Shown here: one piece after another, positions 8,293 through 55,035 of the stretch | Layout of the letters: each line of letters starts with the position of its first letter | Numbering within the stretch: position 1 is the first letter of the stretch | Origin: Eledone cirrhosa | Lineage: Eukaryota | NCBI GenBank assembly: GCA_964016885.1 | Contig: OZ024747.1 | Coordinates: 40,920,001-40,984,000 of the forward strand | Direction: 5' to 3' | Length of the DNA stretch: 64,000 nt | Made by a program: the position numbers and the translations under genes | Notes under the pieces: generated by a model | Databases searched by the model: none | Told to the model about the DNA's origin: nothing | The model's input: only the letters and a program-made list of their open reading frames with translations

Positions 8293-10006
8293 TTTCGTAT
8301 GAAAAGGAAAAGCAACGTGTTGCTGTGTTGCTGTGATAATCAAATGTTAGTATATGATTCATGTCTATCTCCGATTGATGACTTGTATGAGTGTTTTTGG
8401 TAAGAGATGAGTTACAGAAAACATTAGATTTTTCACTCGCTATTTACAGCGTATGGAATCTATTTAAACAGTATTTCCTTTGGAAGCCAATCCCTATTGT
8501 TTGCCAAGAGGCGGCTTTGGAGTTGTGTTAGTATTTGATATTTTCAGCTGAATGATGTGTGCATTACTTAAATATGTTTACGCTTTTAAACAGTTTCACT
8601 GATATGTAGAAAACAAATGAGAAACACATTTACTGTCTAATAGAAAATTAAGAATGGATTTCCTAAACATAAGCAAAACGACATAGTCGAGGATTTTTAC
8701 TTTCTCTGTTAAACTAAGGAAGCTGTTTTGTGATCGAATCATGATCTAGGTCATAACAATGAGAAAAGATAGAATCAAAACAAAGACATACGATAACATT
8801 CTTGTCTAGTATTGGAATCCGATATTCAGACCGACTGTACAAGTATAATTGAACAAATATATCATAATGGAACAATATATAAACTCTTTAGTATATCTTT
8901 CTGCAGCCAAGAATACAGTTTTGTATACGAAATAATCGCAAGGTAATATATAAGAAAGAAAACAAAATTCATAAAAATACTACATGTAAGGAAAAGAAAA
9001 TATAATTAAAAGCAAAACAAAACGTCATGCCACATCTACGAAACTTTTACTTAACTTCGCTCTCAGTTTTTCCTTTCCATAACTACAAATATTAGGAACA
9101 GCCTTCACCCAATTTCCCTTTAAAAGGATGAAGGTAAACATCAGTTAAATGGACCTCGTAGTTTAACCCGACAAAATATTTTTTTTAATGGTTTCCAGAT
9201 TTGTTATTTTCTCAAACCAAACTATCCTTCTTGATTTCATAAATTTTAGTCGCGTTAATGTAATATCTTTTGCTTAGTGAAGCATTACGGGAACTTTTAT
9301 CTCTCAGTAATCATGAAACGAAACCAAACCTTCCGTGTAAAAAAGCAAGAATTTAATGTAGTTATGTTCTTCTATCATATAGGTTTATTTCTTTCATTTA
9401 ACTCAGTAAGAAAAAAAAAGAAGATATAGAAATAAACTAAACAATTGCGTGAATGATTCTTTTTTCTTTTTCTTATTCTTAAATCGATTGTTACTGCGAC
9501 CGAATGGGATATGGCTAAGCTAGTGTGCTAATGTTATGGAAAAAGATCTGGGCGATAGAAGGAAAAACAAATCACTTGTATAGAAATTTATAAGCGAAGA
9601 TGTTTTATATGGAGAGGGATTGCACATCACTACGTTGTTTATTATTGTTTACGTTGTTTCAAGTGAGTGCAAATTTAATTCCTATATTCGTTAGAAACAT
9701 CATTTCAGTGAGATTTATATAGCAATATAATACTGCTTTCACTAAACAAAAAAGGTGAAATAGAGAAAATTCAATTGACTCCAATATATTGTTAGCAGTT
9801 ATCGAATTTGGAATGTTAAAAGTTGGAGTAGACATCTGTGTCATGTGATCTCAGTACAAGGATAAAGTAGATTACATTTAGCAAGGCGTTTAGGGGAACA
9901 AAAACAAAACTTATACACATATATACATGAATATATACATACATGCAGCATATATATAGATAGATAGATAAATATACACGGGTGTGTATGATTGTGTATA
10001 GAAGAT

Positions 10007-10397
10007 TATATTAATACGAGGAATTCCAACTTTGTCTGATTTACTCGTTTTATTTACAATCCTTTAAAATTTATAATGGTATTATAATGAAATAGTATGA
10101 TAGAATATTAAATTCTAAGTGTTAATTGAAGAAGCACTTTCATGCTTTCGCAATCTTCAGGTTCATAATATGTGGTGACAGTCAAGTTTGCAATTTTCAA
10201 CAGTTGAAAATTGCAAACTTGACTGTCACCACATATTATGAACCTGAAGATTGCGAAAGCATGAAAGTACTTGTTCAATTAACACTTAGAATTTAATATT
10301 CTATCATACTATTTCATTATAATACCATTATAAATTTTAAAGGATTGTAAATAAAACGAGTAAATCAGACAAAGTTGGAATTCCTCGTATTAATATA
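10007..10397. repeat. Near-perfect ~390-bp palindrome of family HH-A (third arm at 12661-12846)
   Basis: Arms mirror around 10202 (caattttcaa cag ttgaaaattg) with only a few mismatches. Flanked by TA-type tracts. Confidence 0.92.
10239..10277 (+). ncRNA. Minimal type I hammerhead motif (HH-A)
   Basis: TGAAC-CTGAAGA-TTGC gaaa GCAT-GAAA-GTAC-TT-GTTCA. Stem I TGAAC/GTTCA, palindromic stem III AGTACT, U.U closing stem II. Confidence 0.7.
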
Positions 10398-11082
10398 TAT
10401 ATATATATATATATATATATATATATATAAAGAGAGAAAGAGAGAGAGAAAGAGAGAGAGAGAGAGAGAGAGAGAGAGAGAGAGAGAGAGAGAGAGAGAG
10501 AGAGAGAGAGAGCGAGAGAGAGAGAGAGAGAGAGAGAGAGAGAGAGAGAGAGAGAGAGAGAGAGAGAGAGAGAGAGCTTATTCGATTTGTGCTGTTTATG
10601 CAATTGTTTGCATGATTTACACATAGTGAATTCATTTGCCAAAATCTGGTGTTTTTCCCCTGTGGGTTACACATGTGCTTTTACAAAACACTGTGTCATC
10701 CACAACACTGGCGCAGAACAAAGTTCACGTTGATAACGTGATATTCCTCGTTCGATCATTATACCAAAAGCTTATTATTTTAAGCAGACAGTATTATTGA
10801 TTGAGGTGTCGCATAAACCCTGTACTGGATTATACTATCAATTCCGAGGTCCGGGTGAATATGTCATTTATTTTGTCTGACCCGTTTGGCTTGACTCGTT
10901 TTCTTTTTGGCTCAGGTGGTTAATGGCTTCTAGACCGCCTTCTCAGTTTGTATGGCCGTTATAACCTATGTTTATTGCTCTGGTCTCTTTAGCCCATGGA
11001 GCGCTTGCCAGCGTGACTCGGAATTTGCGTTGCGTTTCGCTTTTTCCTACCTTCCGAAATGCGATTCTCGCTGAATTTGTAT

Positions 11083-12665
11083 TTATATATACATATTCAT
11101 ATATATATATATATATATATATATATATATATATATATATATATATATATATATATATATATATATATATATATATATACATATATATATACATATATAT
11201 ATATATATATATATATATATATATATATACATATATATATACATATATATATATATATATATACATATATATATACAATATATATATATATATATATATA
11301 CATATATATATACATATATATATATATATATATATATATATATATAATATACATATATATATATATACATATATATATATACATATATATATATATATAC
11401 ACATATATATATATACACATATATATATATATACACATATATATATATATACACATATATATATATACACATATATATATATACACACATATATATATAC
11501 ACATATATATATACACATATATATATATACAGATATATATATATATATACATGTATATATATATATATATTATATATACATGTATATATATATATATATA
11601 TATATATATATAAATATATGTATATATATATATATATATACATATATATATATATATACATATATATAAATATATATATATATATATATATATATAAATA
11701 TATGTATATATATATATATATATATATACATATATATATACATATATATATATATACATATATATAAATATATATATATATATATATACATATATATATA
11801 TATATATATATATACATATATATAAATATATATATATATATATACATATATATATATATATATATATATATATACATATATATATATATACACATATATA
11901 TATATATATATATATATACATATATATATATATATACACATATATATATATACATATATATATATATATACACATATATATAAATATATATATATATATA
12001 TACATATATATATATATATATATATATACATATATATATATATACACATATATATATATATATACATATATATATATATATATACACATATATATATATA
12101 CATATATATATATATATACACATATATATATATACACATATATATATATACATGTATATATATATACACATATATATATATACACATATATATATATACA
12201 CATATATATATATATACATGTATATATATATATATATATAAATATATGTATATATATATATATATACATATATATATACATATATATATATATACATATA
12301 TATAAATATATATATATATATATATACATATATATATATATATATATATATATATATATATATACATATATATATATACATATATATATATATATATATA
12401 TACATATATATATATATATATATACATATATATATATATACATATATATATATATATATACATATATATATACATATATATATATATACATATATATATA
12501 TATACATATATATATATGTATATATATGTATACATATATATACATATATATATATATATATATATATATATATATATATATATATATATATATTTATATA
12601 TATATTTATATATATATATATTATATATATATATATTTATATATATATATATATATATATATATT
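11083..12665. repeat. ~1.6 kb compound (TA)n/(TACA) microsatellite
   Basis: Seen directly. It generates the spurious poly-(IY) ORFs. Confidence 0.97.
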
Positions 12666-54363: not shown

Positions 54364-54449
54364 GTGTCCGACGAGCCCACAGCTCTAGAGTCAGACATCC
54401 ACACAATGAGCGTGTCTCGAGCTGTCAGCCGGCGAAACAAATGTAACGC
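54364..54449 (+). ncRNA. Hammerhead motif with extended stem II (HH-C)
   Basis: GTGT-CCGACGA-GCC [acagctc..gagctgt] GGC-GAAA-CAAATG-TA-ACGC. U4 is replaced by C. Confidence 0.55.
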
Positions 54450-54578
54450 ACAATAAATTGAGTTGAGATGCGTCACTGATTTTTCGTTTTATTTATATCA
54501 TACTCTGCTATGTAAGAGCATAGAGTGCTCAACCGGCATACCTCCTATGGAAGCATCTTAGCTACCATCAGACACACA

Positions 54579-55035
54579 CTATATCAAATATATAAGAACC
54601 GTAGAGCAAATATTTATTAAAATAACAGATTAAAGTTTAAGCAAAGAATTGCTGCTTTCACCCTTAACGGGATCTTCTGAAACTCAGAAGATCCCGTTAA
54701 GGGTGAAAGCAGCGATTCTTTGCTTAAACTTTAATCTGTTATTTTAATAAATATATATATATATATATATATATATATATATATATATATATATATATAT
54801 ATATATATATACATATATATATATATATATATATATATATATATATATATATATATATTTATTTATTTATTAAAATAACAGATTAAAGTTTAAGCAAAGA
54901 ATCGCTGCTTTCACCCTTAACGGGATCTTCTGAAACTCAGAAGATCCCGTTAAGGGTGAAAGCAGCAATTCTTTGCTTAAACTTTAATCTGTTATTTTAA
55001 TAAATATTTGCTCTACGGTTCTTATATATTTGATA
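54579..55035. repeat. Double palindrome of family HH-G with minus-strand hammerhead motifs at 54633-54685 and 54886-54938
   Basis: Two ~140-bp hairpins separated by (TA)n. Minus strand reads GAGTTT-CAGAAGA-TCCC gttaa GGGT-GAA-AGCAG..TTGCT-T-AAACTT. Confidence 0.7.

Follow-up and report, generated by a model that had tools for sequence, protein, structure and literature searches.

Penelope-like elements (PLEs) of the Hydra clade, as described by Craig et al. 2021 (PMC8557442), code for a GIY-YIG endonuclease located at the C terminus, with RWR, DKT, CxCX5C, CxxC and CxH motifs, target (TA)n, carry a hammerhead ribozyme at the 3' end and leave an inverted 5'-truncated arm and a one-sided tail. 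In the parts of that account compared here, their units are generally <3 kb and their tails 30-40 nt, and its supplement includes an octopus element, Hydra-1_Obim, with many similar hammerheads. The minimal PLE hammerheads covered in the compared part of Cervera and de la Pena 2014 (PMC4209133) form many consensus families per genome, with a palindromic helix III, a covariant U3-A8 core, and mostly single or opposite-strand copies 100-700 bp apart; in the portions of the literature cited here, the activity of PLE hammerheads in vitro is low. Poseidon-Ac, in the sections of Frangieh et al. 2024 (PMC11167929) drawn on here, bears a hammerhead at the junction of its pseudo-long terminal repeat (pLTR) and open reading frame (ORF), and nicks and extends both strands of AT-rich DNA from two internal start sites that set the tail; its cleavage occurs only with protein and is dispensable for insertion in vitro, and those sections report no RNA reads ending at the site. 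Metazoan non-LTR retrozymes, in the compared parts of two accounts (PMC7229834; 10.64898/2026.07.22.740005), are expressed, non-coding tandem units, typically of 300 nt, with one type I hammerhead per unit, dispersed arrays, circular RNA and a proposed dependence on PLEs, and Li, Clavereau and Pollet 2026, in the second of these, proposed that they are non-autonomous PLE derivatives. Here we compare these systems with a 64,000-nucleotide stretch of the 3.0-Gb genome of Eledone cirrhosa (assembly GCA_964016885.1, contig OZ024747.1, positions 40,920,001 to 40,984,000; the window), an AT-rich sequence with many (TA)n tracts in which an initial annotation had placed seven non-coding, retrozyme-like, hammerhead-bearing repeat families, designated A to G.

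The 3' ends of A and D and the pLTRs of F and G belong to protein-coding PLEs, and this linkage to ORFs was observed directly. F serves as pLTR to an element of 3,531 bp, the tandem units of which are 99.97% identical and contain a 784-codon open frame, and it lies downstream of the endonuclease, on the same strand, at 22 of 25 endonuclease loci. Consistent with this arrangement, the window copy of F retains the last 33 codons of the GIY-YIG endonuclease ORF on its inverted arm (tblastn, 91.7% identity, E 6e-15, alignment beginning at 26428). G is arranged as pLTR-ORF-pLTR in L174, L176 and L178, with a 645-codon frame; A terminates a 762-codon PLE at its 3' end, its ORF being present at eight of nine wide-spaced loci; and D sits 3' of a third ORF, seen in two frames (L092 and L100). 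Family C is probably also the end of an ORF-bearing PLE, with endonuclease fragments (no full ORF) upstream of it in L096 and L102 that are 36-46% identical to other Hydra-type endonucleases and have a CxCX4C linker. Instead of forming short tandem units, A, C, D, F and G thus continue into long 3' untranslated regions (UTRs) and ORFs. The description "non-coding" therefore falls for four families (A, D, F and G) and probably for C, and the proposed diverse swarm invisible to ORF-based annotation consists largely of ORF-bearing PLE ends that are visible to repeat annotation. The initial annotation had itself suggested checking whether the families flank PLE ORFs, a result that would lower their novelty, and this is largely the outcome; its link to PLE pLTRs and retrozymes was correct, as was (TA)n targeting, the (TA)n flanks being directly observed.

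F combines reverse transcriptase (RT) and C-terminal GIY-YIG in a single ORF, with RWR, DKT, a CxCX5C linker, CxxC and CxH and no GxKF; G has the same full Hydra-clade motif set when two loci are combined; and D shows DKT, CxCX5C and CRH in frames that lack the N terminus. Judged by their predicted proteins, F, G and D match the Hydra-clade signature as given in the compared part of Craig et al. 2021, a call made from motifs and BLAST; no F or D frame scored in a Pfam search. Family C is likened to these elements by similarity only. A, because of its GLKF, DKG and CX4CxxC motifs in place of DKT, CxCX5C and the absence of GxKF, is not of the Hydra type and appears to be Neptune- or Nematis-like. 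F, G and D also share with Hydra-clade PLEs the (TA)n targets, the 3' hammerhead, the inverted 5'-truncated arm and the one-sided tail, but their units are longer (3.3-3.5 kb), as are their tails (40-90 nt), and their copy number is very high, with 63,186 endonuclease candidates. The U3-A8 and CAGAAGA cores described below are absent from the rows of the Hydra hammerhead table compared, which form part of that supplement; some window families may nevertheless already be named there or in Repbase.

B and E fit non-LTR retrozymes, a known kind of element, and are hitchhikers; for these two families the non-coding, tandem description in the initial annotation stands. The unit is 466-470 bp in B, longer than is typical, and about 320 bp in E, with one type I hammerhead in each, and no ORF was found in the 15 B loci and 16 E loci examined. 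Their GC contents (36% for B, 43% for E) and dispersed arrays are also retrozyme-like. The largest B array has about 31 units, and E forms only partial tandems of the 320-bp unit. Unlike described retrozymes, which are known as RNA, B and E are described here from genomic DNA, and their arrays are two-armed with PLE ends, an arrangement that the compared parts of the two retrozyme accounts do not describe. In one array (L194), 12 forward and 7 reverse B units show no difference, the reverse units having been compared over 250 nt, and a B unit in the window is 97% alike to them. One window B array is inserted outside (TA)n and is flanked by a 12-bp target duplication. A non-exhaustive search of adjoining ORFs found no helper for B or E; ORFs beside E (L093 and L098) and B (L191) were rejected as helpers, being separated by (TA)n or belonging to other families.

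In all seven families the arms are paired head to head in (TA)n, with fixed outer ends of two kinds, and the footprint is that of a PLE: an inverted 5'-truncated arm, a one-sided tail and an AT-rich target. The two ends of each family were observed directly as clusters, which lie, in nucleotides after the predicted cut, at 122 and 168-180 in A, 229 and 301 in B, 47 and 129-140 in C, 47-51 and 139 in D, 114 and 154 in E, 17 and 97 in F, and 21-25 and 114 in G; extra clusters at 56 in A and 54 in G arise from internal TA runs. The two opposed arms differ in the end they use: 48 of 50 F stubs pair a long arm with a short one. A start-site hairpin pattern is found after either end of F, after the long G end and after the short ends of both C and D; by the same pattern no hairpin follows the ends of A, B or E, a hint that the helper of B and E is a different one. 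Arms of two different families are joined head-to-head at window positions 12660-13556 and in L019, which fits the use of two RNA molecules. The fixed ends and tail match the tail of Craig et al. and the two start sites of Poseidon-Ac, as far as the compared parts of those papers go, suggesting by analogy that priming takes place from both nicks.

Taken together, these findings lead us to propose, with a probability of about 0.8, that PLE ends account for four families (A, D, F and G) and probably for C, that B and E are non-coding tandems, and that all seven arrived as paired arms in head-to-head orientation, likely synthesised by a PLE reverse transcriptase using both strands of a (TA)n target that had been nicked. 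The PLE protein would nick both strands and prime at two internal RNA sites, as Poseidon-Ac does in vitro, giving one short and one long arm, and the two cDNAs would be joined wherever copying ends, via microhomology or a few untemplated bases. Part of the F RNA would have been cut by its hammerhead beforehand, so that both cDNAs run off at the new 5' end, whereas B would be copied from circular or uncut multimeric RNA, giving identical units on both arms and no junction at the cut site. In line with the latter, no B junction at the cut site was found among the 50 pattern matches listed, despite 9,305 exact B hammerheads genome-wide; these matches were mostly chance, a reversed control giving 167. 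The lack of cut-site junctions, together with identical units on both arms, fits a circular or uncut multimeric template.

The nucleotide-level record comes from F stubs selected for arms that join within 24 nt around the predicted cut, and here a pile-up of arm ends at the predicted scissile bond was observed directly. In the youngest F tail type (50 stubs listed of 199 loci), a scripted count found both arms ending within 1 nt of the bond in 35 of 50, as against 2.8% under a uniform null. Eleven of these joints are blunt, 15 are exact with untemplated bases of seven insert kinds, and at the untemplated junctions 39 of 58 arm ends fall exactly at the bond. A second subfamily, with a U3-A8 core like that of the youngest type, gave 31 of 50 (listed of 113; hand count), its core type agreeing at four of four places between the cut-site-region and whole-hammerhead listings. 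A third, with a C3.A8 mismatch in 18 of 20 linked copies, gave 4 of 22 (all loci) and no blunt joint (Fisher p 7e-5), despite sharing its G run and CG microhomology with the high-share subfamilies. On these junctions, the pile-up likely records hammerhead cutting in living cells, and the reading we favour, with reasonable confidence, is that a fraction of the F RNA pool was cleaved. The young F form folds as a monomer, so a dimer is unlikely, on this predicted fold, to be needed for F cleavage. This stands apart from Poseidon-Ac, since here genomic stubs end at the site. We are rather more guarded, at a little better than an even chance, about the wider proposal that the genome is a nucleotide-resolution fossil record of in vivo hammerhead cleavage, in which the share of site-joined stubs would read the activity of ribozyme variants and B would escape as a circle.

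Several results weigh against these proposals. A fourth F subfamily, with U3-A8 in three of four linked copies, gave 14 of 50 (listed of 52; hand count), no different from the mispaired subfamily (p 0.56); a strict dependence of the peak on core pairing, which predicted a high share here, is thus unproven, and what sets the subfamilies apart may be age, the enzyme or stem II instead of pairing in the core. Even in the mispaired subfamily a small peak remains at the bond, with 8 of 28 arm ends. Site-joined stubs account for roughly 1% of all F copies, and the majority of short F stubs end earlier, about 35 nt upstream of the cut. Only 4 of 26 A junctions lie at the cut (hand count), the D and G junction tests are confounded by AT-rich microhomology, and the uniform null disregards microhomology and correlated arm lengths. 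For B, the data fit a multimeric linear transcript as well as a circle, and stem covariation amounts to one compensatory pair and is not significant (42 of 500 shuffles scored as high); contigs of three runs, compared over part of B, gave no cross-species covariation. The C linkage, the weakest of the five, comprises two loci with partial ORFs. The short F stubs centred about 35 nt upstream are joined inside stem II and lack the CUGA half, and that position may correspond to an RT stop, a splice acceptor or the start of transcription.

The F pile-up could instead arise where the RT halts, at the base of stem III or at the G run, or from cutting by a protein, rather than from ribozyme chemistry, in which case the families themselves would stand. 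Such an origin accommodates the small peak in the mispaired subfamily and the failure of the fourth subfamily to separate core pairing from age, and the Poseidon-Ac results cited above, with no RNA reads ending at the site and cleavage dispensable in vitro, agree with it. Yet all four subfamilies have the G run and CG microhomology in common while their shares run from 18% up to 70%, the low-peak subfamilies have a stem III no less stable than that of the others, the peak is one nucleotide wide and lies at the bond rather than at the hairpin base, and the untemplated additions fit run-off at a template end; we therefore consider a stop or protein cut unlikely, if still a serious competitor. 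The counts would lose their independence if a few palindromic masters, resembling miniature inverted-repeat transposable elements (MITEs), had given rise both to the F stubs centred on the site and to the A and G palindromes with a fixed centre. A single G junction does recur in 298 exact copies, and the same single A/T insert is found in 8 of the 15 exact F junctions with insertions, next to 11 blunt ones. Seven different inserts occur, however, the long arms carry different variants, and the same peak is seen in three subfamilies that differ in their tails, while a tail-only G query found the fixed centre in 1 of 30 loci, native G numbering 11,071 copies. The apparent fixed centres of A and G are due to query bias: A and G were rejected as MITE-like families since the queries had included the centre and full elements with ORFs exist. 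Copying from masters is thus improbable as a general account; it may hold for the 298-copy G set only, which could represent either a hot spot or a master family of small size.

For the B and E arrays, DNA-level tandem amplification after insertion of a single unit would dispense with multimeric reverse transcription; the compared part of Li et al. 2026 (10.64898/2026.07.22.740005) favours local amplification of pLTRs into arrays, and an array of about 31 B units would be readily explained. The opposed arms of L194, however, hold identical units and finish at the two fixed PLE ends, and the array at 36 kb of the window is flanked by its target duplication, so that we think amplification at the DNA level improbable too, though slightly less so than palindromic masters. 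That the window holds seven independent non-coding ribozyme retroelements, as initially proposed, agrees with the ORF-free tandems of B and E, but it is refuted for A, D, F and G, which run into PLE ORFs, as C probably does too, and we give it almost no credence.

The hammerhead motifs themselves are well supported. With a strict type I descriptor, the window gave 7 sites without mismatches (five B, two D), as against 0 sites in 14 of 15 shuffles and 1 in the remaining shuffle. A relaxed descriptor, composed after the core variants were already known, found 13 sites as against 0-1 per shuffle (30 shuffles) and 0 on the reversed sequence; its matches include A 10244+, D 14250-, 42746- and 49828+, G 54679- and 54932-, B 15027+, 36516-, 37067+ and 37533+, and F 25350-. 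The C site 54368+ was matched by a stricter scan with one core mismatch, and a fifth B copy, at 14750-, was absent from the original list. Twelve of the 16 hammerhead sites listed in the initial annotation were recovered, 11 with the relaxed descriptor and C with the stricter scan; the four missed are decayed copies (E 42141, E 45732 and F 52411) and F 26521, which has a stem I of only 3 bp. The reported order of stem I, core, stem II, GAAA, stem III and UH was borne out, with sites far in excess of shuffles and with variant cores in C (CCGACGA), G (CAGAAGA) and F (TTGA(G/T)AA, U3-A8, or CTGAGAA, C3.A8 mismatch); TTGACAA is a further natural F variant. Stem III is indeed a palindrome in A, B, D, E and C (ACAATTGT), in keeping with minimal PLE hammerheads; F and G differ in having true stem III hairpins, and F also has a long stem II. 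B alone scored in Rfam, as HH9, with 32.9-37.7 bits against a gathering score of 52 (among the matches listed, 150 of 264); Rfam microRNA matches in the window were dismissed as hairpin and microsatellite artefacts. Genome-wide exact counts of single motif variants were 5,871 for A and 811 for E, in addition to those given above for B and G, and 22,956 for the F cut-site region, of which 2,877 match the whole-hammerhead pattern; first-look candidates number at least 2,401 for C and at least 1,571 for D, both lower bounds.

The U4A core of G (CAGAAGA) is fixed in an abundant autonomous element. A further hammerhead-like match lies at window position 62555 (+; GTCA CTGATGA ... AGAACT), a type that recurs four times in other loci examined, with a CTGAAGA core, and at least eight additional hammerhead types, several of them U3-A8, lie in flanks (L036, L039, L079, L097, L104, L122, L027 and L031), indicating that the genome holds far more than seven. 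We also identified an eighth repeat, H (window 12851-13556, +), an approximately 614-bp partial tandem in which GAAA precedes TGAT-loop-ATCA-CTGATGA by about 25 nt, an arrangement similar to a permuted or half-core hammerhead, with UH in some copies only; it resembles the HHR_half_core label in the part of Craig et al. compared and is also present at L001, L035, L049, L054, L061, L096, L104 and L118.

Table 1. Repeat features located in the window (window coordinates).
Feature	Position	Strand	Remarks
Family A two-armed stub (long arm -, short arm +)	9971..10397	.	PLE with DKG, GLKF, CX4CxxC
Family A hammerhead	10239-10277	+	predicted cut after 10272
Family A short arm, head-to-head with unrelated repeat H	12660..12847	-	
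Family D two-armed stub	14060..14375	.	core 14250 (-); ends approximate
Family B retrozyme insertion in (TA)n	14493..15358	.	short-ended arm (-), long-ended arm (+); cores 14750 (-), 15027 (+)
Diverged C-related two-armed insertion	17679..20127	.	decayed core near 19935
5'-truncated F element, Hydra-type PLE	25245..26708	.	two arms
F inverted arm	25245-26419		whole 3' UTR; core 25350 (-, CTGAGAA)
F forward arm	26442-26708		core near 26525 (+, TTGAGAA)
F GIY-YIG endonuclease frame, final 33 codons	26321..26419	-	tblastn
F two-armed stub	27318..27530	.	3' half of hammerhead only
Two more F stubs	34033..34458	.	34033-34232 two-armed; 34314-34458 forward
Family B array	36260..37864	.	about 1.5 units (-), 2 units (+), period 466
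B array cores	36516, 37067, 37533	-, +, +	12-bp target duplication 36249-36260 / 37864-37875
Family E copy	41935..42177	+	ends just past stem III; stem I decayed
Family D two-armed stub	42602..42856	.	core 42746 (-)
Old partial tandem, family E	45319..45793	+	decayed cores
Diverged D subfamily copy	49818..49928	+	core CAGATGA at 49828; ends approximate
Older F 3' end	52216..52601	+	core TTGAAAA; stem I decayed
Family C 3' end	54335..54600	+	core CCGACGA at 54368
Two family G two-armed stubs	54580..55065	.	recurrent AAC centre; stem I intact on -, cores 54679, 54932

Outside these features (Table 1), two-armed palindromic inserts in (TA)n at 55167-55540 and 13720-13870, in which no hammerhead was found, are probably more PLE stubs. 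By motif reading, an L1/Tx1-type long interspersed nuclear element (LINE) occupies 662-7573 (-) and 56541-58247 (-), with a 1,111-codon endonuclease-RT frame at 2173-5508, a 641-codon upstream frame at 5648-7573 and (GATA)n flanks; it may be intact, and truncated copies are also present. A 45-bp minisatellite of about 25 copies (21504-22625) adjoins a repeat resembling a short interspersed nuclear element.

Our literature search, which left most subscription papers and Repbase outside its scope, found no cephalopod hammerhead study beyond Craig et al. 2021, and no paper that joins Penelope hammerhead self-cleavage with untemplated insertion junctions, although absence from print is not thereby established. 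The part consulted of a paper on Octopus vulgaris repeats, which describes 31 recently active Penelope-like families, makes no mention of hammerheads or ribozymes (PMC13282606).

Overall, the motifs are real, the kinds of element are known and the first interpretation was partly right; the headline of seven new non-coding families fails, and the remaining interest lies in the junction record. Junction counting offers a genome-scale test of PLE hammerhead cutting in cells, with natural variants as controls; it bears on whether cut RNA serves retrotransposition and points to constructs for assay. The contrast between F, with linear arms ending at the cut site, and B, with no such ends and identical multimers on both arms, bears in turn on the circle-copying step proposed for retrozymes.

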